A stretch of 23,064 nt of DNA from Nitrospirota bacterium (GCA_029858565.1 JAOUEV010000054.1:1-23064); one strand, 5' to 3'. Shown: positions 3,156 through 22,704, counted from the stretch's first letter. Translations and numbers: made by a program. Notes: generated by a model not told the origin, from the sequence alone.

Positions 3156-3797
3156 CTACGTATTAAGCGCTGAACTGTTGCACTGCGAACTTTCCTGCCT
3201 ATAGTATCCGCCTGACGCGCAGGGAACGCACAGGACCTTTCCTTTCCGGCAGACCTCTCTTCCGTCCTGGACGTGTTCACCGCAGGAGTCGCACCGCACC
3301 CGGCGCAGGGGCCGGCCCGGCATGTCCTCGGGCGCAAGGGCAACCGTCACTGCCATGACAGCGAACAACTCTTCGTCGGCCATGACCTTGTACGCCTCGG
3401 TCTGTCCGGCGTACTTGTTCTCCCTGTCCGGAAAGAGTTCCTTCGCCTTCCGGCGGGAGTCTTCGCGCGCAAGGACCCTGACCGCCTTCCGCGTTTTCAG
3501 GTTCAGAAACGTCGCGGCCATCTTCCCGTAATCCAGGAACTTCATGGTCCGGTGCCCGAGGCTGCATCCGGTCACGGACTGTATCGCATCAGCAGCGCAC
3601 CGGTCCATCTCTACAAAGACTATGATGTTCTTCCGGTCTCTGCCCTTCGGCTCACGGATGCCGATTTCCCGGAGGCCGAGTATCGACATCCGGACGCCGA
3701 GCACCTGACCGGGGCAGAGATGACCGTGGATCCTGACGGATTCAGCGAGGAGCTGTTCGAAATCCGAAGGTGACGGCGCCGTCGATTGCATGGTCAT
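3156..3797 (-). CDS. fmdE: FmdE-family protein with C-terminal CxxC...CxxC zinc finger
   Basis: HGHLCPGQVLG, RCAADAIQSVTGC, DYGKMAATF, CDSCGE...CVPC. Confidence 0.88.
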   Translation of the reverse strand: MTMQSTAPSPSDFEQLLAESVRIHGHLCPGQVLGVRMSILGLREIGIREPKGRDRKNIIVFVEMDRCAADAIQSVTGCSLGHRTMKFLDYGKMAATFLNLKTRKAVRVLAREDSRRKAKELFPDRENKYAGQTEAYKVMADEELFAVMAVTVALAPEDMPGRPLRRVRCDSCGEHVQDGREVCRKGKVLCVPCASGGYYRQESSQCNSSALNT

Positions 3798-3932
3798 GGG
3801 GAATGTCTCGTCTTTATTGATCTGCAGGAGATTCCGGCCATCAGCGCCGGCGGACGGCCACGGATGACCCGCGATGAGAGTTTTTCAACGATCTGCCCGG
3901 CCCGCATTCCCGCGTTCAGCGCGCACAGGGGA

Positions 3933-4709
3933 TCAAGAGGCGCTGAATTCTGCCACAATAGCCTCTGCGTAATGGGCGCGTTCGCATTCCGGGCAGAGGC
4001 CGCCTTGTTTCGTACGCGGCTGCTCGCTGTTGCGCGACGCCACGTGGTCGAGAAACTGCTTTGTTGCGTAGGGGGTTCCGCAGTTCCCGCACCGGACAAG
4101 CGGGAACCTGCCGATCAGGTTGTTCTTCAGGAAAATGGTGCGCTCGCCGCCTTTGTCCTCCAGCCGGACCGCGCCGGTGGGGCAGACGTTCGCGCAGGCG
4201 CCGCACCCGACGCAGGCCTCCGAGAGCTTGCCGAACTCCGCCGTGACCCGCCGCTTCTGCCCCCTGCCGGCGAAGCTGATCGCCGCAACGCCGATCTTGT
4301 CCCTGCAGGCACGCACGCAGAGGCCGCAGCGGACGCAGTCGTCGCTCTCCGCCGCGCGGAACCGCGAGGTCTCGACGCCGTAGCGCTTCGCCATTTCGCG
4401 GAGCCGGGACGAATCCGGCGTCCTGCCGAGCAGGAGTTCGAAGATGATCCTGCGCGACGCCGCCACCAGGGGCGTCTCCGTTTCCACCGAAAGCCCCTCG
4501 GAAACAGCAAGCGTGCACGAGGTGACGAGCGAACGGCGGAGCTGGGGGCTTTCCGCCTCCACCACGCACAGCCTGCACGCGCCGTAGGGGCCGAGTCCCT
4601 CATGAAAGCAGAGCGTCGGGATGTCGATGCCTTCGCGCCGCGCCACTGCCAGCACGGTCATGGATTCATCCGCCGTAACGGTTTTTCCGTTCACTTTGAT
4701 CGTCGCCAT
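3933..4709 (-). CDS. NuoG/HydA N-terminal-like FeS subunit ([2Fe-2S] + 2x[4Fe-4S]), no catalytic domain
   Basis: IPTLC..GACRLC..TSC; CVRCGLCVRAC; CVGCGACANVCP; extra CGNC..CPEC; no H-cluster or Mo-binding domain. Confidence 0.88.
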   Translation of the reverse strand: MATIKVNGKTVTADESMTVLAVARREGIDIPTLCFHEGLGPYGACRLCVVEAESPQLRRSLVTSCTLAVSEGLSVETETPLVAASRRIIFELLLGRTPDSSRLREMAKRYGVETSRFRAAESDDCVRCGLCVRACRDKIGVAAISFAGRGQKRRVTAEFGKLSEACVGCGACANVCPTGAVRLEDKGGERTIFLKNNLIGRFPLVRCGNCGTPYATKQFLDHVASRNSEQPRTKQGGLCPECERAHYAEAIVAEFSAS

Positions 4710-4712
4710 GGT

Positions 4713-6509
4713 TCACGCCTTTTGTATGGATCCGAATTTGCAGGTATCGAAGCAGATCCCGCACTTGATGCACAGCCCCTGATCGATGGCATGGGGCTTC
4801 TTCTTCTCCCCCGAGATGGCCTTCTGCGGGCAGGCGAGGGCGCAGGCGGTGCAGCCGGTGCATTTCGCAGGATCGATGGAGAACCTGATCAGGGCCCTGC
4901 AGACGCCGGCGGGGCATTTTTTGTCCCTGATATGCGCGTCGTATTCATGCCGGAAATACCGGAGCGTCGAGAGGACCGGGTTGGGCACCGTTTTTCCCAG
5001 GCCGCAGAGCGACGCTTCCTTGACCACCTGGCAAAGCTCCTGCAGCGTGTCGAGGTGCTGCTCGGTCCCCCTGCCCGCGGTGATGTCGTCCAGGAGGCCC
5101 ACCAGCGCCCGCGTCCCTTCCCGGCAGGGCGTGCACTGGCCGCAGGACTCGTCCAGGCAGAAGGACACGAAGAACTTCGCCACATCCACCATGCAGGTGT
5201 CCTCGTCCATGACCACCATGCCGCCGGAGCCCATGATCGAGCCGAGCGCCGTGAGGTTCTCGTAGTCCACGGGAACGTCGATATGCTCCCAGGGAATGCA
5301 GCCGCCCGAGGGGCCGCCGGTCTGGACGGCCTTGTATTTTTTGTTCTTCGGAATGCCGCCGCCGATGTCGTAAATGATCTTGCGGAGCGGTATGCCCATG
5401 GGCACTTCCACGAGGCCGGTGTTGTTGATCTTGCCCACGAGCGAGAAGATCTTGGTGCCCTTGGATTTTTCCGTGCCCATGGACGCGAACCAGCGCGCCC
5501 CGTTGGTCATGATCTTCGGGACCGTGGCCCAGGTTTCCACGTTGTTGATGTTCGTCGGCATTCCCCAGAGCCCCTTGTTCACGGGAAACGGCGGCTTGGG
5601 CCGCGGCTCGCCGATCTGGTCCTCCAGCGAGGCGATCAGCGCCGTTTCCTCGCCGCAGACGAAGGCGCCCGCGCCGAGCTTCACCTGGATGTCGAAATCC
5701 ATGCCGCTCGCCGCGATGTTCCTGCCGAGCCACCCCCGCTCCCGCGCCTGCTTGATGGCGTGCCGCAGCCGCTCCACGGCAAGGGGGTATTCCGCCCTGA
5801 TATACACAAAGCCCTCGGCCGAGCCGATGGCGTAGGCGCCGATGATCATCCCCTCGATGACCGCATGGGGGTCCCCTTCGATGATCGCCCGGTCCATGAA
5901 AGCGCCGGGGTCGCCCTCGTCGCCGTTGCAGATGACGTATTTCCGTTCGCCCGGCGACCTCCGGCAGATCTCCCATTTCATGGCGGTCGCGAACCCGGCG
6001 CCGCCTCTGCCCCGCAGCCCGGAGCTTTTGATCTCCTTGATGACCTCGTCGGGCATGAGCGCCGTGAGCACCCGTTCCGCGGCCCGGTACCCCCCGGCGG
6101 CAATGTAGGAATTTATGTCTTCCGGATCGATGTTCCCGCAGTTTGCCAGAACGATTTTATTCTGCCCCCCATGGAACGACGCATACTCGGGTCCGGCCTT
6201 CCACGAGTCGATAGGCGCGCCGCCGATGATATGTTCATCGATGATCCGGTCCGCCATTTCAGGCTTCACGAACTGATAAGTGGTCGTCACGCCGTTGATG
6301 ATGACGTCGACGAGGACGTCCTTGGCGCAGAACCCCCGGCAGCCCACACGATGCGCGCCGCACCGCTTTTCCACGGTGCCGGAGACGGGACGGCGCGCGA
6401 ATCCTTCTTGAAAGGCGGCGAGGACCTTTTCTCCGCCCGTGGCGATGCCCCCGGTGCCCATGCAGACCTTGACCGTGATGTTTCCGTCCTGTGCGCCTCG
6501 TCTGCCCAC
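4713..6509 (-). CDS. nuoF: NuoF/HydB-like FMN- and NAD(P)H-binding subunit, long form with N-terminal thioredoxin-like and C-terminal 2x[4Fe-4S] domains
   Basis: SGLRGRGGAGF, CNGDEGDPGAFMDR, GAGAFVCGEETAL, GGPSGG, ESCGQCTPCREG, SLCGLG, two CxxCxxCxxxC motifs; GTG start. Confidence 0.93.
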   Translation of the reverse strand: MGRRGAQDGNITVKVCMGTGGIATGGEKVLAAFQEGFARRPVSGTVEKRCGAHRVGCRGFCAKDVLVDVIINGVTTTYQFVKPEMADRIIDEHIIGGAPIDSWKAGPEYASFHGGQNKIVLANCGNIDPEDINSYIAAGGYRAAERVLTALMPDEVIKEIKSSGLRGRGGAGFATAMKWEICRRSPGERKYVICNGDEGDPGAFMDRAIIEGDPHAVIEGMIIGAYAIGSAEGFVYIRAEYPLAVERLRHAIKQARERGWLGRNIAASGMDFDIQVKLGAGAFVCGEETALIASLEDQIGEPRPKPPFPVNKGLWGMPTNINNVETWATVPKIMTNGARWFASMGTEKSKGTKIFSLVGKINNTGLVEVPMGIPLRKIIYDIGGGIPKNKKYKAVQTGGPSGGCIPWEHIDVPVDYENLTALGSIMGSGGMVVMDEDTCMVDVAKFFVSFCLDESCGQCTPCREGTRALVGLLDDITAGRGTEQHLDTLQELCQVVKEASLCGLGKTVPNPVLSTLRYFRHEYDAHIRDKKCPAGVCRALIRFSIDPAKCTGCTACALACPQKAISGEKKKPHAIDQGLCIKCGICFDTCKFGSIQKA

Positions 6510-6511
6510 CG

Positions 6512-6973
6512 TTACCCTTCCTTCTCGATCTTTTTTACGATATCCGTCGCCTTCTTCGTCGTGACGTTGCCGTGCGTATCCTTGTCAACGACCATCACCG
6601 GCGCGAGGCTGCAGGCCCCGATGCAGCGGACCGCGTCCAGGGTATAGCGCATGTCCTTTGTGGTTTCTCCCTCTTCCACGTCCAGTTTTCGTTTGAGTTC
6701 GTCGAGTATGCGCTGGGACCCTTTCACATGGCATGCCGTTCCGAGGCATACCTGGATCTGGTGTTTCCCTTTCGGGGTCAGGCTGAAGAGATGGTAAAAG
6801 GTGGCGATGCTGTAGAGCCTCGTAATCGGGACGCCGGTTTTTTTTGCAAGATACATCAGGACGTCCTCGGGCAGATAATTATACCGGGACTGTATCTCAT
6901 GAAGCACCGAGATCAGGTTTCCCCGTACCTCGGGGTAGCGGGAAAGAACGTCGTCGACGGGCTGCATTTCCAT
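6512..6973 (-). CDS. nuoE: NuoE/HydC-like [2Fe-2S] subunit
   Basis: ATFYHLF, VCLGTACHVKG, RCIGACSLAP; AAAGGAG RBS. Confidence 0.93.
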   Translation of the reverse strand: MEMQPVDDVLSRYPEVRGNLISVLHEIQSRYNYLPEDVLMYLAKKTGVPITRLYSIATFYHLFSLTPKGKHQIQVCLGTACHVKGSQRILDELKRKLDVEEGETTKDMRYTLDAVRCIGACSLAPVMVVDKDTHGNVTTKKATDIVKKIEKEG

Positions 6974-6982
6974 GGCGCTCCT

Positions 6983-7411
6983 TTATATTCCCGACAAATA
7001 GTCCTTCAGGTGGTGAATCTCCGACTTCAGGTTTCCCACCTGCGTCTTTACCACGTCCCGGATCGAGAGCATGCCCGCGACCTTTCCCTGCTCCATCACC
7101 GGCATGTGGCGAATGCGCTTTTCGATCATGACGCTCATGACCGCGCAGAGGTCCTCCTCGGGCTCGGCCACGATCAGGTCAGCGGACATGGCCTGCTCCA
7201 GGAGGACCGTGCTGAATTGCTCCGGCCACCTGCGGTACGCCCGGAGGACGTCCCGCTCGGTGAAAATCCCGGCGGTCCGGGAATTCTTCCTGACCAGCAC
7301 GGCGCTGACATTCCGCTCGGTCATTGTCGCAATGGCCTTGTCCACGGTATCGCTCGCATCGAGGAAAATGGTCTCCCGTCCCTTTTCATCCAGCAGATCC
7401 TTTACCGTCAT
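6983..7411 (-). CDS. Stand-alone CBS-pair domain protein
   Basis: GIFTERDVLR, RIRHMPV, GMLSIRDVVK; GAGGAG RBS. Confidence 0.92.
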   Translation of the reverse strand: MTVKDLLDEKGRETIFLDASDTVDKAIATMTERNVSAVLVRKNSRTAGIFTERDVLRAYRRWPEQFSTVLLEQAMSADLIVAEPEEDLCAVMSVMIEKRIRHMPVMEQGKVAGMLSIRDVVKTQVGNLKSEIHHLKDYLSGI

Positions 7412-7450
7412 ACGAACGCTCCTCTTCCCCCTGCCGCGGTTTTCTCCGCC

Positions 7451-7753
7451 CTATGCCGGCTGCTTCCCCGATGCCCGGTCCAGCACGCTGCCGATCTTCC
7501 GGATTTTTCCGTCGAGTTCCAGAAACTGCGCCGCGGCATGCCTGCTGGTACCGCGGGAGCGCACCTCGCGGCGGGTCATTTCTTCCAGCAGCCGGCGCGC
7601 TTCGGACAAAATAGCGTCCATTTCCCGGACCTGGCCGGCCTTCGAGGACCCCGCAGCGGACATCCGGACCGCTTCCCGGGAAATGTCGTCCAGGAGAGGC
7701 GAAAGATCATCGAAACTTCTCGCCGCCTGCATCGTTTTCAGAAGGTCCGTCAT
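7451..7753 (-). CDS. Hypothetical alpha-helical protein (100 aa) in the operon
   Basis: GGGAGG RBS; fills the gap between the FeS subunit and CBS genes in operon orientation; no recognised motif. Confidence 0.65.
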   Translation of the reverse strand: MTDLLKTMQAARSFDDLSPLLDDISREAVRMSAAGSSKAGQVREMDAILSEARRLLEEMTRREVRSRGTSRHAAAQFLELDGKIRKIGSVLDRASGKQPA

Positions 7754-7782
7754 GAGTCATCCTCCCGGACATCCCCGACAGC

Positions 7783-8295
7783 CTAATATGCCGCCCCGAA
7801 CTCGGCGATTTCCCGCGCAAACCGCTCCCGCTTCAGCGCCGATGCCTCGGCCGCGGACACCCAGCGCAGCGCGTGGGCCGTGCATTTGGTCACGCAGGCC
7901 GGTTTCAGCCCTTTGTCGACGCGGTCCTTGCAGTAGTCGCATTTGATCACCCTGCCCGTCTCGGGGTTCCACTGCGGCACGCCCCAGGGGCAGGCGGTGA
8001 TGCAGGACTTGCACCCCACGCAGAGCGGCTGCTCCACGAACACGATCCCGTCCTTCGTCCGTTTCTGCATGGCGCCGGTGGGGCAGGCGGAAACGCACCA
8101 GGGCTTCTCGCAGTGGAAGCAGGGCATGAAGACGAAATGCATGCGCGGGATCCCCCTGATCATCTTCGGGCCCACGGGCATGATCCTGCAGAACCGCGGG
8201 CCCACGGGCACGTTGTTCTTCGTTTTGCAGTGCACCTCGCAGGCATAGCACCCGATGCACCGTTTCTGGTCTTGATGGATGTAATAGATGCTCAT
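7783..8295 (-). CDS. Four-cluster FeS beta subunit of a DMSO-reductase-family enzyme (PsrB/PhsB-like)
   Basis: CIGCYACEVHC, CFHCEKPWCVSACP, CVGCKSCITACP, KCDYC..PACVTKC; AAGGAGG RBS. Confidence 0.93.
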   Translation of the reverse strand: MSIYYIHQDQKRCIGCYACEVHCKTKNNVPVGPRFCRIMPVGPKMIRGIPRMHFVFMPCFHCEKPWCVSACPTGAMQKRTKDGIVFVEQPLCVGCKSCITACPWGVPQWNPETGRVIKCDYCKDRVDKGLKPACVTKCTAHALRWVSAAEASALKRERFAREIAEFGAAY

Positions 8296-8307
8296 CGCGC
8301 TCCCTCC

Positions 8308-10392
8308 TTACGCCTTGGCAACGCTCACGAAACATTCGAGGTAGGCGACGCCGCCGCCCACGGGATCCACGGTCTCGAGCAGGCCGATTTCGAATTTCGT
8401 GTCGCTCAGGCCTTTCTGATAGGACCGGGTCTTCAGCGGGATATCGCTCCCGAACCCGTGCACCATGAAGACCGCCTCGGGATGGATGTGGGGCGTCACC
8501 TTGGCCTTGATCTTCCCGCGATAGCCGCCGGACGAGACCTCGACCGTGTCGCCGTCCTTGACGCCCAGGGCCTGCGCTTCCGCATCGTTGATCCAGAGCG
8601 CGTTCTCCGGCATCAGCTCGTTGAGGTAGATGTTGTTCTGGGACTGGGCATGGGTATGGACGGCGCTCCTGCCGAACAGCAGCCGGAACGACCCCTTGTC
8701 CGGCTTTTTGGGCGGCGTGTATGCCTTGAAGGACGGGAACCCGGCCTTCGCCAGGTCCTCGGAAACAAGCTCGATCTTTCCCGAAGGCGTCTTGAATTTC
8801 AGCGCGTTCCGGTCCTGCAGAATGGCCGCTTTGGCGAGGCCCACCGATCCTTTCGCGGAAAAATCCTCGATTTTCACGCCGGTGTTTTCCAGCTGGTAGT
8901 TCCAGATGTCCTCGATGCTCTTGTAAGGGAAGTATTCCCCCGCGCCCATCCGGTGGACGATGCTCGTGAAGATCTCCCAGGCGGGCTTGCTGTCGTACCT
9001 CGGCGGAACGGCCTGCCGCCGCATGACGAAGGAAGGCTTCTGCCCCTTTGCCGTGCCGATGATGTTCGACCGCTCCAGGTAGGTCGCTTCGGGAAGAATC
9101 ACGTCTGCGAACCACCCGGTCTGGCTGTAGTTGACGTCGATGGAAACCAGCAGGTCGAGGCCGGCCAGGACCTTCTTCTGCGCCTCGGGATCGGGCAACG
9201 ACGCGATCGGGTCGTAGCGGTAGGCGAAGTAGGCCTTGATGGGATAGGGTTCGCCGGTTTTGATCGCCTTGTACAGGTTCACCACGTGTCCCGTGCCGAA
9301 GGGTTTGTTCTTCATTGCCGCGTCGGCGATCTTGTCCTTGGGCTCGGGAATCTTCGCTCCCAGGGACTGCAGCGGTTTCCTGCCTGCGTCCGACGGCCCC
9401 TTGGCGATGATCATGCCTCCCTTGGTCTCGATGTTTCCCATCAGCGCGTTCAGGATATAGAGCGTCCTGCTGGCGTAGAAGGAGTCCACATACCGGGCCA
9501 GCATCCACCCGGGATGGAAGATCACCTTCGGCTTTGCGCTGCTGAAGTCGCGGGCCAGGCTGACGATCTCCTGGGCGGGGATACCGGTCTCCTGTTCGGC
9601 CCACTCCGGCGTATAGGGCGCGACGAAGTTTTCGAGCTCCGTGATGCCGCTGACGTATTTATTCACGAAATCGGGGTCGTAGAGCCGTTCCTGCAGCACC
9701 GTCCGGATGAGCGCGAGGTTGAGCGCGTAATCCGTTCCCGGCCGGATCATGAGGAACCGGTCCGCTTTCGACGCCGTGACCGTTGCCCGGGTGTCGATAT
9801 AGGTCAGCTTCGCGCCGCGCTCCATGCCGTCAAGGATATTGTTCACCTCCTTGACCTGCAGCGATTCGAAGACGTTCCGTCCGTACAGGACGATGTGGCC
9901 CGCGTTGGCGAAGTCATAAGCCAGCTCCGCGCGGCTGTTGAACCCGAAGAGGCTCCTGCACGCCATGTCCACGTTCTTGCCGCAGGTGTCGTCATGGTTG
10001 AAATAGTTGGCCGAGCCCAGCGCCTTCAGGAAGCTCGTGGTCAGGTCCGTGAACGGGCCGCTCCGGTCGGAAAGCGCGATGGCCCTGCCGCCGTGCTTCG
10101 CAGCGACCTCCTTCAGCTTTCCCGTGATATACTCGAGCGCTTCGTCCCAGGTCGCCCGTTTCCACTTCCCCGAGCCCCGCTCGCCGTCCCTGATCATGGG
10201 GAACTGGGGCCGCTCGGCGTCGTATTCGAACGCAAGGCCGGCCGAGCCTTTTGCGCAAAGACTCCCTTCCAGGCCCGGCTCGTGGGGGTTCCCTTCGATC
10301 CATTTCACCGCGCCGTCTTCCGTCTCCACGCGGATGGAGCAGCGGACCGCGCACATGCCGCACATGCTGTATACCGACGATGTTTCTCCCAT
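8308..10392 (-). CDS. Molybdopterin oxidoreductase catalytic subunit, PsrA/PhsA (polysulfide/thiosulfate reductase)-like, without Tat signal
   Basis: CGMCAVRC..LCAKG FS0 motif within the first residues; NHDDTC at the Cys-ligand position; IRPGTD, ADVILP..YLER, C-terminal HPEAVFMVHGFG; start at ATG 10392 after GGAGG. Confidence 0.9.
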   Translation of the reverse strand: MGETSSVYSMCGMCAVRCSIRVETEDGAVKWIEGNPHEPGLEGSLCAKGSAGLAFEYDAERPQFPMIRDGERGSGKWKRATWDEALEYITGKLKEVAAKHGGRAIALSDRSGPFTDLTTSFLKALGSANYFNHDDTCGKNVDMACRSLFGFNSRAELAYDFANAGHIVLYGRNVFESLQVKEVNNILDGMERGAKLTYIDTRATVTASKADRFLMIRPGTDYALNLALIRTVLQERLYDPDFVNKYVSGITELENFVAPYTPEWAEQETGIPAQEIVSLARDFSSAKPKVIFHPGWMLARYVDSFYASRTLYILNALMGNIETKGGMIIAKGPSDAGRKPLQSLGAKIPEPKDKIADAAMKNKPFGTGHVVNLYKAIKTGEPYPIKAYFAYRYDPIASLPDPEAQKKVLAGLDLLVSIDVNYSQTGWFADVILPEATYLERSNIIGTAKGQKPSFVMRRQAVPPRYDSKPAWEIFTSIVHRMGAGEYFPYKSIEDIWNYQLENTGVKIEDFSAKGSVGLAKAAILQDRNALKFKTPSGKIELVSEDLAKAGFPSFKAYTPPKKPDKGSFRLLFGRSAVHTHAQSQNNIYLNELMPENALWINDAEAQALGVKDGDTVEVSSGGYRGKIKAKVTPHIHPEAVFMVHGFGSDIPLKTRSYQKGLSDTKFEIGLLETVDPVGGGVAYLECFVSVAKA

Positions 10393-10420
10393 GGTTTCCT
10401 CCCGCATGGTCTCTTGCGAA

Positions 10421-17547: not shown

Positions 17548-18084
17548 TTACGGCGTACGCTCCTGCTTCGACAGCCGCAGGACCATGCCGTCGCCGAACG
17601 TGATATCGTCGATATGCACCGCTGCCTTGCTTCCACGCGAGACCACGTGGATATGGATGAAGTTCTGCATGCCCGAGTCTTCACTGATCGCCGGAGCATA
17701 CTGGCTGATGAACTCGCCGGGATGACTCTCGGCATGGAAGCCGACGATATCGACCGGCTCGTTCTTCATCACATAGCCCTGCTTGGACTTGCGGAACAAT
17801 TCCTTGGTGATGGTTTTTCCCTCGGTCCGGTTCACGTTGATATGCCATTTGATCTCGGCCGGCGTTCCGGTCATCAGGAACGGAAACGGCTTGGCCACGT
17901 CGATTCCCGCCTTCTGCGCCTGCTCCTTGACAAACTTCCGCAGGTCCACGTAGGTCTTTACCGTCGCGGGAACCGGCACGTCCTGCCAGGCCGACTGTTC
18001 GGTCCATACCAGGAAGATCGCATTGTGCTTGAGCGTCGTATCCACGGTAAAATCTTCGCCCCGCACCTTGCTGATTTGGATTAC
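17548..18084 (-). pseudogene. Alpha-acetolactate-decarboxylase-like protein, apparently 5'-truncated
   Basis: PFPFLMTG, IVGFHAESHPGEF, HIH-x10-HIDD metal motif; frame starts mid-domain (IQISKVRG) without RBS or ATG. Confidence 0.6.
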
Positions 18085-18111
18085 GGTATGAGTCGGGTAC
18101 TGCAGGACGTG

Positions 18112-18441
18112 TCAGGCTGAGGGCGGCTTCAGTATCTCTGCGGGATGCGCTTCCGCGAAATGAACGGCCAGGAACGACGCAAGCGCCTTTACCGCAGACA
18201 CCTGGATGCCGGGGCAAAGTCTCGCCGCGGTAAAGAGGAATTGCGGAAAACGGTGTGTAGTTGAACCGGAAAGCATGGGCCCCGGTGCCGTCGGCACGGG
18301 GCGGTGGCAGAGGCGCCTGAGCGGACAACCTTCGCACTTCGAAACCACGCTCGACTTACCGGCCGCCCCGAAGGGGCAGGTATTCTGGAGCATGAGCGAA
18401 AGAGCAAGACAGCAGGCGATAAACAGCAGCACTCGCTTCAT
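18112..18441 (-). CDS. Small exported Cys-containing protein (signal, CxxC, C-terminal PP), DUF2946/CutF-like architecture
   Basis: MKRVLLFIACCLALSLMLQNTCP signal-like start, KCEGCPL, terminal LKPPSA; promoter directly upstream. Confidence 0.6.
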   Translation of the reverse strand: MKRVLLFIACCLALSLMLQNTCPFGAAGKSSVVSKCEGCPLRRLCHRPVPTAPGPMLSGSTTHRFPQFLFTAARLCPGIQVSAVKALASFLAVHFAEAHPAEILKPPSA

Positions 18442-18448
18442 GCGTCAG

Positions 18449-18477
18449 ACTATAAGTCCGGCCTGAACAGGCGTCAA
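18449..18477 (-). promoter_or_regulatory. Sigma-70 promoter giving a leaderless transcript
   Basis: Minus strand TTGACG-N17-TATAGT-N7-ATG. Confidence 0.7.
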
Positions 18478-18628
18478 GGCTTGTATTCGATCTTACGTTG
18501 CATGCATTCCGTTGTGTAACCGTGAGTTGTCTTGGTCCGGCACGGCTGTGTTATGAGACCGCACAGTCCAGCATTCAATACCTGATAATCATATAAAGGG
18601 CACCTCCCCGTTCGTTTCGGGAAACCCC

Positions 18629-18659
18629 TTGACCTGTCTACAGCTTCATAGTTTAGAGT
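18629..18659 (+). promoter_or_regulatory. MerR-type promoter with 19-bp spacer
   Basis: TTGACC-N19-TAGAGT upstream of the MerR-family start; weak dyad in the spacer. Confidence 0.6.
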
Positions 18660-18684
18660 ATACTCGTGAGAAGGGAGGTGAACC

Positions 18685-18879
18685 ATGTACACCGTGGGCA
18701 GCCTGGCCAGGTCCTTTGGTCTTTCCCGCAGCACCCTGCTGTACTACGATTCCATCGGACTGTGCAAGCCCTCAGGCAGGAGCGCTGCCAATTACCGGAC
18801 CTACACCGAGAACGACCGGGCGCGTTGCCGTTGCTGCACTCGGGATCGAACGAAGCCGGATCAACGCCATTCTCAATGA
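18685..18879 (+). pseudogene. MerR-family regulator, N-terminal HTH only (truncated after about 47 aa)
   Basis: MYTVGSLARSFGLSRSTLLYYDSIGL.KPSGRSAANYRTY; strong GGAGGTG RBS; similarity lost near 18825, no effector domain. Confidence 0.8.
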
Positions 18880-19375
18880 CCTGGAGCGCCACCTGACATT
18901 CCTGTACCGCCACAAGAACGGCAGGGTCGCCTGGGCCTACCCGGTGACGGTGGACGAAACGCCCCACCGGCTTAAGTTCAGTGCCGGCGAGGAGGTGTAC
19001 GCTGCCTGAGCAGCGGATGCCTTTGCCACGCCCTTCGTGCAAGGGCGCTTACGCAATGAAACCCTGAGCGTCAGGGTCAAAAGCTCCTGCGCTCACTGCG
19101 GTAAACCGATCGAGCTCACCATCGACAGCGACCTGAACTGCACAGTCCATGATCCGGAGGCTCGTCCCCTCGTGTTCGTGCCTGACGTGGACCTGCTCAC
19201 GCTGCGCGAAGAGAATATCATCAATGCATTTTGAAGAAAGACCGTATTCTTCTGTTCAGAAGAATGCGCAAGAGAATACAGAAAAAAGGGTCATACGACA
19301 AGGGGCATCTATTTGTTGCCTGAGGAGATGAAGGCGATCAAGGTGATGCAGAGCGTCCTGTTCGGTTTCGAGTAA
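18824..19375 (+). CDS. merB: MerB-like organometallic lyase with two in-frame UGA (putative selenocysteines); 5' end appears missing
   Basis: One frame: ..WAYPVTVDETPHRL..VYAA(UGA 19007)AADA..SSCAHCGKPIEL..IINAF(UGA 19232)RKTVFFCSEECAREY..FGFE TAA 19375; UGAs match MerB YAWCAxD and SFCxxVHFF cysteines. Confidence 0.8.
19029..19047 (+). promoter_or_regulatory. SECIS-like hairpin for UGA 19007-19009
   Basis: CGCCCTT-cgtgc-AAGGGCG, perfect 7-bp stem, G at loop position 2. Confidence 0.6.
19243..19268 (+). promoter_or_regulatory. SECIS-like hairpin for UGA 19232-19234
   Basis: CGTATTCTTCT-gttc-AGAAGAATGCG, 11-bp stem with one GU; loop starts with G about 20 nt after UGA. Confidence 0.65.
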
Positions 19376-19443
19376 TGCGAGACTCCGGTTTGTTGACAAA
19401 CTCGCTTCGGAGCGGGTCGTGGGGAGATGAGGGAGTTGTAAAG

Positions 19444-19475
19444 ATAAAGGCCCGGGATATTTCCGGGCCTTTATT
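19444..19475. terminator. Bidirectional terminator between converging genes
   Basis: ATAAAGGCCCGG-gatattt-CCGGGCCTTTAT; lies after TAA 19375, consistent with the read-through gene end. Confidence 0.8.
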
Positions 19476-19503
19476 GTTGAGAAAACATGTGTTGTCAAGC
19501 CGC

Positions 19504-19518
19504 AAGACCTAACCCTAT
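19504..19518 (+). repeat. Dispersed REP-like motif, copy 2
   Basis: AAGACCTAACCCTAT. Confidence 0.5.
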
Positions 19519-19588
19519 TTGTTTTGTAACGGATGCGCCGGTGTCCGTGAAAACAGATGAACGCCGAGACTTGCTGCGCGACGCCTCG

Positions 19589-19909
19589 TTATTCACCGTA
19601 CACAGTAACCGTGTATTTGCCAAAGAGCGCAAGGCAGGAGAAGCTCGAATTATCAACATGGTGGATCTTCGTTATCTTGGCGGCGCTGGCGATCGTGTTG
19701 ATGCTGCAATCGCCGATCGCCAGCAGGCCGAGGATCGAGGTGCAGGAACCGCTCCCGGATTTGGTCGAGACCGCATTTGACGTTGCGGATCCGGCCCAAT
19801 CAACATTGGTGTAGAGACCGCCGGCCACCGGCGATGCAACAATGCTACAACCCGACAACAGCACAACCGCTACCGCGACAACTGCCAGAACTGCGATGAT
19901 CCTTTTCAT
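19589..19909 (-). CDS. TRL-like family lipoprotein
   Basis: Lipobox LSGC; GGLYTNV, KSGSGSCTSILGLLAIGDCSI, ITKIHHVD, TVYGE; AAAGGAG RBS. Confidence 0.88.
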   Translation of the reverse strand: MKRIIAVLAVVAVAVVLLSGCSIVASPVAGGLYTNVDWAGSATSNAVSTKSGSGSCTSILGLLAIGDCSINTIASAAKITKIHHVDNSSFSCLALFGKYTVTVYGE

Positions 19910-22176: not shown

Positions 22177-22276
22177 CAGGACTTCTGCTGAACAGTCAGT
22201 CCTGCAGCGAGGATGCCGAACGAACCAATCCTGTCCCAGGGTCGCACCGCAGCATGTGGGACGTTGTTACGAAACC

Positions 22277-22305
22277 ATGACATTCCCATCGTGGTTTGCT
22301 ATCCT
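22277..22305 (+). promoter_or_regulatory. Extended -10 promoter giving a leaderless transposase mRNA
   Basis: ATGACA-N17-TATCCT (TGn extension)-N6-ATG. Confidence 0.6.
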
Positions 22306-22311
22306 CGCCCC

Positions 22312-22704
22312 ATGCCCCGCAAGCCCCGCATCGAATTCGCCGGCGCCTTCTACCACGTCATCGTCCGCGGCAACCAGAAACAGCGCGTATTCAAGGATGC
22401 TGCGGATTTCCAGAAGTACCTCCTCACCCTCACCGTGTACAAGAACCGCGCCGGCTGCCGCATCTACGCCTATGTCCTCATGAACAACCATGTCCATCTG
22501 CTGGTCGAGACCCAGGACGTCCCCTTGTCAAAAGTCATGCAGGGCGTGAATCAGACCTATACCATGTATTTCAACCGGAAATACCGCACTGTTGGCCATC
22601 TTTTCCAGGGGCGCTACAAAGCGATTCTCTGTGATCGAGACGCCTATCTCCTCGGGCTCGTCAAATATATTCACGAGAATCCCCTCCGCGCCAGAACTAC
22701 ATAG
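22312..22704 (+). mobile_element. rayT: REP-associated tyrosine transposase (Y1/HUH), C-terminally truncated
   Basis: MPRKPR..YHVIVRGN, AYVLMNNHVHLL (HUH), GHLFQGRYKA, KYIHENP; stops abruptly at the TACATAG repeats. Confidence 0.88.

Follow-up and report, generated by a model that had tools for sequence, protein, structure and literature searches.

The stretch of DNA analysed here (the window; 23,064 nucleotides from a Nitrospirota bacterium, GCA_029858565.1, JAOUEV010000054.1:1-23064) contains a plus-strand reading frame that is interrupted by two TGA codons. This raises two questions, namely what the two codons stand for, and whether the gene that carries them is still a working gene. A preliminary description of the locus, made from the sequence, had answered both by proposing a hidden, intact MerB-like lyase with two selenocysteines (Sec).

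A MerB-like reading frame with two in-frame UGA codons

With TGA translated as U, the frame 18629-19375 departs from translation table 11 at only two steps, U127 and U202, and is closed by the TAA at 19373-19375, 46 codons 3' of the second TGA. Translation of 18629-19375 thus bears out the earlier claim of one frame with two TGAs that ends at TAA 19375. The MerB-like part occupies 18824-19375 on the plus strand (183 codons plus the TAA, with the two in-frame TGAs). A search of MerB models with U in the translation, as the preliminary description had suggested, gave a match to the Pfam MerB family (PF03243) well above its cut-off: the 183-residue piece (18824-19372) scored 64.1 bits, against a gathering score of 27 bits, with an E-value of 1.6e-17 over residues 42-170, a match that spans both TGAs.

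In the phmmer alignment to the MerB sequence of PDB entries 1s6l/3f0p, yaaCaaD lies on yawCalD and nafCrktvff on qsfCChvhff. According to this alignment U127 (TGA at 19007-19009, plus strand) is the equivalent of Cys96, the Asp three residues further on, which the window copy has kept, is the equivalent of Asp99, and U202 (TGA at 19232-19234, plus strand) is the equivalent of Cys159, in agreement with the earlier claim that UGA stands at both catalytic Cys with the Asp retained. The window piece is 58-65% identical to full-length relatives, it retains all 17 invariant columns of the family alignment (A3), and its retained part contains no frameshift and no extra stop.

We also modelled the full-length homologue of G008, a genome that belongs to the window's taxonomic family, with AF2, using A3 (56 sequences), and obtained a mean pLDDT of 91.2 and a pTM of 0.89. 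The 11 best PDB matches of this model in Foldseek are all MerB or MerB2 (E 4e-12 to 2e-7), with target TM values of 0.63-0.81 over 198-226 aligned columns, and the same protein scores 61.7 bits against Pfam MerB. By score and by predicted fold, the latter modelled on the full-length homologue, the family belongs to Pfam MerB. The NCBIfam models gave no match at cut-off on either the window or the full-length G008 protein; the MerB models NF009710 and NF033555 (cut-offs 193 and 200) remained below threshold on the window, at 52.3 and 52.1 bits, and gave 56.2 and 47 bits on the G008 protein.

Near the second TGA, positions 19250-19270 of the window read FFCSEEC, where FFWSEEH is found in 81/86 relatives. 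The change places two additional Cys near the second putative Sec, in a CSxxC pattern that can be compared with TRASH-type metal motifs; the Pfam TRASH and treble-clef matches in the window are weak (E 0.02-0.3). Downstream of the frame we read from the sequence a terminator-like, G+C-rich hairpin, GGCCCGG...CCGGGCC, followed by the T run TTTATTGTTG (19449-19479, plus strand), which corresponds to the terminator announced in the preliminary description. Rfam matches of a terminator-like kind in this region are weak only, and a terminator scan marked another, weaker site at 19364-19384.

Conservation of both UGA positions in the family

The family was assembled from 86 homologous loci, comprising one from G008 (L011), five from genome contigs and 80 of the metagenome matches, which number at least 212. 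Some of these are near-duplicates, and together with the window they provide 78 unique 60-nt stretches after each TGA. TGA is present at both aligned positions in 86/86 loci, as is the Asp at site 1 + 3, and no locus has a further stop inside the homologous region. The preliminary description had raised the possibility that similarity might end at the UGAs; instead, homology continues downstream in every locus, with conservation at the protein level for about 120 codons beyond the first TGA. Their sources are metagenomes and MAGs that bear the labels Nitrospiraceae, delta proteobacterium, Dehalococcoidia and Blastocatellia. Within the phylum, 7 of 301 sampled genomes are carriers (E <= 1e-20), all belonging to the window's own taxonomic family and all with two TGAs.

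A word-indexed protein search returned 27 relatives, and a search with the A3 profile, covering 1.84 billion representatives, returned 1208 proteins at E <= 0.001, 458 at E <= 1e-10 and 86 at E <= 1e-30. Most of the best 150 of these 1208 are cut off at site 1 (profile position 125) or site 2 (200). The JGI calls have W at both UGA positions, the majority of the remaining entries terminate at ...YAA (125-127 aa), and the source name is 'hypothetical protein' in every case seen. Gene callers do fragment the gene as had been predicted, with database entries that end at ...YAA (~125 aa) or at site 2 (~200 aa).

Some database entries have Cys at site 1 and end at site 2. Cys occupies site 1 in P0007-P0010, P0033, P0037, P0040 and P0042, the last four of which end at site 2. 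In the full-length proteins P0031 and P0034, site 1 is Ser and site 2 is Cys. Since Cys is found at one or the other site in relatives, each UGA position has Cys counterparts, and the comparison of TGA and TGC codons proposed earlier thus gave TGA/TGA in all loci of the set and Cys-bearing relatives at either site.

These data bear on the simplest alternative, in which the TGAs are ordinary stops and the family consists of short proteins of ~125 aa followed by untranslated DNA, or of pseudogenes. Such a reading would agree with the database gene calls that end at the first TGA, and the insertion of Sec in the family is deduced from sequence. It is opposed by the conservation past the first TGA without any other stop, by the Cys found at either position in relatives, and by the MerB fold, which requires the downstream part; the hairpins and the Sec machinery described below argue against it as well. 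We consider the family, which is MerB-like and has UGA at both Hg-ligating Cys positions with the Asp kept, to be real as judged by these alignments, and UGA to be truly a sense codon in it, predicted to be read as selenocysteine.

The W in the JGI translations prompted us to consider a third Sec at FF-W-SEE, which was discarded, the codon being TGG in 81, CGG in 3 and TGT in 2 of the 86 loci. One locus (L048:1020-1866) has a third in-frame TGA elsewhere, at FL-W-QK, where relatives have Trp; it may reflect a sequencing error or an inactivating mutation, or have some other cause. In addition, there is a divergent full-length sub-branch (27-36% identity; P0035, P0038, P0043, P0063, P0104 and P0090) with no Sec or Cys at either site and with the Asp mostly absent. 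Its members have a Cys in F[FY]CSxEHA, at the position of the window's Cys that is Trp in most of the family.

Hairpins downstream of the two UGA codons

Each TGA is followed by a SECIS-like hairpin. The first, at 19029-19047 (plus strand), has the stem CGCCCUU/AAGGGCG and the loop CGUGC, and is supported by folding and by pair conservation. The second, at 19243-19268 (plus strand), has an 11-pair stem in the window and folds with -13.2 kcal/mol (z -2.7). The bSECISearch model of bacterial SECIS elements asks for a spacing of 16-37 nt and a G within the first two loop positions, and both hairpins fit it, because their loops start 26 and 19 nt 3' of the respective UGA and have a G in the first two positions. 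The folds are therefore in line with the earlier claim that each TGA has its own stem-loop with G in those positions. A permissive Rfam search of 18500-19550 gave no family at gathering score and nine weak matches, none of them to a SECIS family.

Among the 78 unique sequences, five pairs of hairpin 1 are kept in 78/78. The pair that follows these is G-C in 66, and the outer pair varies between C-G (28), U-A (26) and C·A (23). Hairpin 2 has across the family an upper stem UUCUUCU/AGAAGAA, of which seven pairs are kept in 77-78/78, and a loop that is GGUC in 75 and GUUC in 3, the window among the latter. Compensatory pair changes are present in the hairpins of this set: the closing pair of hairpin 2 is U-A in 74, C-G in 3 and U-G in 1, and in the C-G cases a Trp-to-Arg codon change is paired with a synonymous change from TCA to TCG.

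The codons that form the hairpins are almost invariant in the 52 DNA-backed rows of A3. At site 1 these are CCC (52/52), TTC (52/52), GTG (52/52), CAA (50/51) and GGG (52/52), and at site 2 TTC (50/52), TTC (51/52), TCA (48/52), GAA (52/52) and GAA (44/50), while other invariant Pro, Val, Gly and Thr columns of A3 have codon entropies of 1.2-2.0 bits. This freeze of synonymous sites is the strongest evidence for the SECIS hairpins, and it also counts against the TGAs being ordinary stops. The comparison supports the view that in this family each UGA would be served by a conserved SECIS-like hairpin of its own.

Selenocysteine machinery of the carrier genomes

The preliminary description had pointed to selA, selB, selC and selD as the genes to look for, and all four were found in the window's genome. 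The scores of selA (604 bits), selB (389 bits) and tRNA-Sec (64 bits, with a cut-off of 47) are all above their cut-offs. There are two selD genes, L107 (G000:C3:2376-3290) and L108 (G000:C14:90529-91446), with one in-frame TGA apiece, which probably encode Sec-containing selenophosphate synthetases. selA was also found in 5/5 other carrier genomes tested, so that Sec machinery is present in all six genomes examined, by selA in the five other than the window's. Taking this together with the conservation and the hairpins, we regard it as extremely improbable that the two TGAs are ordinary stops.

Truncation of the window copy and its junction with a merR remnant

The second question, whether the window copy itself is a working gene, has a different answer. 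Its match to P0002 covers only residues 80-264 of 264, and that to P0029 only residues 71-251, the relatives being 253-264 aa long. The missing N-terminus amounts to about the first 70-79 of ~250 residues, which in the AF2 model form a beta-hairpin and the helices 25-42, 45-61 and 67-74. The six other carriers of the 301-genome phylum sample align from residue 1-3 or 29-32. Where sufficient upstream DNA is present, the alignment of most loci begins at residue 0-8, with a start codon at that point. In the window, homology to the family begins only at 18824-18833, and the 65 upstream codons of the ORF 18629-19009 are merR-like sequence read out of frame. Another 5'-truncated copy of the family is found at L068:2171-3017, with homology from near residue 92 and unrelated sequence with stops upstream.

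The merR-like sequence belongs to a truncated ORF of the MerR family, which we call merR' (18685-18879, plus strand, 64 codons), whose ATG at 18685 follows GGGAGGTG. The MerR-like part is limited to roughly the first 47 codons, after which the frame reaches the TGA at 18877-18879. This part contains a helix-turn-helix and matches Pfam MerR (PF00376, E 1.3e-9, residues 3-40) and MerR_1 (residues 2-47), and it shares 70% identity with the MerR-like protein (192 aa) encoded ahead of the full-length gene of G008. Upstream of merR', the segment 18629-18664 (plus strand), with TTGACC at 18629-18634 and TATACT ending at 18664, would be its promoter region; the promoter scan found a 9/12 match at 18637-18664. 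Between the -35-like and -10-like boxes lies the block CTTCATAGTTTA, which is identical in the window (18640-18660) and in G008 (L011:876-892) and is a candidate MerR operator.

The junction was located at 18820-18833 by DNA alignment with L011 and by the point where the protein match starts. Homology to merR, in the frame of 18685, ends near 18825, and MerB-like sequence, in the frame of 18824, runs from 18824-18833. The merR codons extend up to CGT 18823-18825 and the codons of the MerB frame begin at 18824/18827, with an offset of one base. In G008, the full-length MerB-like gene (L011 1513-2274 including the stop) is immediately preceded on its strand by the gene of the 192-aa MerR-like protein (891-1469). 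Since the gap between the merR block and the MerB-like block is 712 nt in G008 and 52 nt in the window, ~660 nt are missing from the window.

The most likely explanation starts from an ancestral layout in which a MerR-family regulator gene stood directly upstream on the same strand, as it still does in G008, of the same taxonomic family. A deletion of ~660 nt would have taken two-thirds of merR from its 3' side, the ribosome-binding site and the start along with the intergenic region, and the first ~70-79 MerB-like codons, and would have joined the two stumps one base out of frame, leaving 18824-19375 as the surviving 3' part (183 of ~250 codons) of the MerB-like gene. Because the stumps are out of frame, translation from the merR start ends at the TGA 18877-18879 after 64 codons. 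Translational coupling at this stop was considered and rejected, as the ATG at 18876 is in the third frame. With no usable start codon left, the window copy is probably a recent pseudogene, 5'-truncated and fused out of frame to a merR stump, and presumably is not expressed.

The starts that are in frame with the MerB part are TTG 18629, a TTG near 18719 and GTG 18944/18950, and none of them has a Shine-Dalgarno sequence. The window copy could nevertheless be proposed to be an intact, expressed di-selenocysteine lyase that begins at TTG 18629 or at an internal start such as GTG 18944, given that the frame is open from 18629 except for the two TGAs, that the catalytic region, both hairpins and the terminator are intact, and that natural members without the first ~30 residues exist (G067, G086 and G228, which align from residue 29-32). 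However, codons 1-65 of such a protein would be merR read out of frame, without homologues, TTG 18629 is located inside the -35-like TTGACC box of the promoter-like region, and the copy lacks helices 45-61 and 67-74, which are part of the MerB-aligned fold (198-226 columns). Furthermore, no other examined locus begins at this point, and the sole other late start, L068, is also truncated and has stops upstream. We therefore consider an intact lyase in the window unlikely, and the original reading of a hidden intact enzyme is not upheld, as the window matches full-length relatives only from residue 71-80 and offers no start with a ribosome-binding site.

A second possibility concerns the single base of the offset. 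The promoter-like region and the Shine-Dalgarno sequence of merR are intact, and the join is one base away from an in-frame MerR-HTH::MerB' fusion. The true sequence might thus be such an in-frame fusion, the offset being an assembly or sequencing error or a strain variant, as may be suggested by two frames that lie exactly one base apart at 18826 and by the preserved merR start. Against this, a separately built 7140-nt contig from run X1 (depth 14.4) spans 18200-19700 with the same sequence, 0 differences and no alternative joint. Run X1 is possibly the window's own source, so this contig is not independent support, and contigs lose rare variants. Moreover, no fused form was seen among the homologues found, in a search not directed at longer proteins, and the join breaks both domains mid-helix. 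An in-frame fusion thus seems to us quite improbable. Runs X2-X4 contain near-identical 3' pieces, covering 19067-19450 only, with the junction outside.

We thus favour the out-of-frame pseudogene for the window copy. As the retained part shows no decay and the hairpins are intact, either the deletion is recent or the stump is still used.

Neighbourhood of the window copy and of its relatives

A MerR-type regulator is adjacent to the MerB-like gene in the window and in 4/86 loci, a count limited by the short length of many of the 86; it is upstream in G008 L011, L014 and L074 and downstream in L021. The regulators found among the neighbours are of the MarR (4), MerR (4), PadR (2) and TetR (1) types. 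Among 121 neighbour ORFs from 40 loci there is no conserved operon around the family, the neighbours being assorted regulators and unrelated enzymes, and Pfam scans of these neighbours revealed no recurring transporter or efflux set. No merA, merT or merP was found in the 20 window ORFs scanned or in the 121 neighbour ORFs of the 40 loci, and the family is not in a mer operon.

An IS200-like transposase is encoded near the end of the window (22213-22704), and in G008 IS3-type integrase ORFs (L011:2414-3666) lie directly downstream of the full-length MerB-like gene, which hints that the cassette moves. In the same-genus genomes G001-G003, only the ORF 17548-18066 is shared with the window, and the cassette is absent. 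This ORF is in a minus-strand segment (17548-18441) with two ORFs without a Pfam family, one of 172 aa, with 73-74% DNA identity in the same-genus genomes G001 and G002, and one of 109 aa, with a signal-peptide-like start and several Cys. Further upstream, the minus strand of 3156-10407 encodes FmdE, a NuoF-like flavoprotein, a NuoE-like 2Fe-2S protein, a CBS protein and a molybdopterin oxidoreductase (699 aa, no in-frame stop), which together look like a formate-dehydrogenase-type cluster.

Proposed chemistry of intact family members

Sec insertion and lyase activity of the intact members are what we infer from the comparison with MerB. By analogy with this enzyme, an organometal substrate would have its metal bound by two chalcogenolates, with the conserved Asp donating a proton to the leaving carbon. 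Selenolates are expected to be deprotonated at neutral pH and to hold Hg more tightly, so that cleavage should be faster and product release hindered. This mechanism is a likely one for the intact members, although it is deduced by analogy. With small-molecule selone mimics of MerB, Hg-C cleavage is reported to be faster than with the sulphur (thione) analogues (PMC11639659), and a di-selenolate site is therefore chemically plausible and testable.

The intact members form a separate clade in which UGA, and thus presumably Sec, occupies both metal-ligand positions in 86/86 loci, and which databases hold in fragments as 'hypothetical protein'. As a tentative proposal, they may constitute a previously undescribed class of organometal lyase that uses two selenolates in place of MerB's thiolates, each inserted with the help of an in-gene SECIS of its own, that is common in anoxic sediments and wetlands and that is independent of the mer operon, the window copy being a freshly inactivated one. 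To our knowledge, MerB is the sole well-characterised enzyme that cleaves carbon-mercury bonds, and if the proposal is true, the family is a candidate means by which anaerobes would cleave methylmercury (or other organometals) without the mer operon. A Sec-aware model is needed to annotate the family, and the window locus should be labelled a truncated remnant rather than a working enzyme.

Comparison with known systems

In a full-text literature search, whose scope did not extend to supplements, no two-Sec MerB relative appeared in titles or abstracts, and the only selenium-containing MerB relative was SaoL. The rows retrieved by term from the tables of two selenoprotein reviews (2022 and 2026) list the SaoL form only, with one Sec (PMC9312934, PMC13188914).

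The hairpins resemble the E. coli fdhF-type SECIS in being located within the coding sequence shortly 3' of the UGA and in having a G in the first two loop positions, and the GGUC loop at site 2 corresponds to the fdhF apical loop. Unlike the fdhF type, the putative elements described here are two separate ones in a single gene.

SaoL, the MerB-like organometallic lyase selenoprotein, is according to the consulted part of its description (bioRxiv 10.1101/2022.07.06.499078, Haft & Gwadz) a protein of ~213 aa with one Sec in a CU dipeptide and with Cys kept at the Cys96 equivalent (Cys99), and it marks a nine-gene SAO locus. As far as that source goes, the present family is similar to SaoL in being a MerB relative from anaerobes, with Sec predicted at the Cys159 equivalent and with database entries truncated at the UGA. 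It differs from SaoL in having two putative Sec (AA-U-AAD and AF-U-RK), no Cys before the second (F-U-R/K), a length of ~250 aa and, in the Pfam scans of neighbours, no conserved neighbourhood. The CU dipeptide and the Cys at the Cys96 equivalent, both typical of SaoL, are absent in the window and across the family, and the SaoL model NF040728 scored 49.4 bits on the window and 38.9 on the full-length protein of G008, its cut-off of 140 not being reached in either case. The family is not SaoL, and the label 'SaoL-like' used in the preliminary description does not apply in the strict sense, given the score of 49.4 against 140 bits, the two UGA positions and the missing CU dipeptide.

The closest likeness is to MerB itself (EC 4.99.1.2; PDB 3F0O/3F0P, 1S6L), with which the full-length homologue shares its predicted fold (Foldseek E 4e-12, target TM 0.76-0.81). 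The family has only ~20% identity with MerB, and has an extra C-terminal helix region with FF[W/C/R]SEEHAREHR. Where MerB has Cys96, Asp99 and Cys159, the family has U, D and U, a site that would be chemically analogous if UGA is read as selenocysteine.
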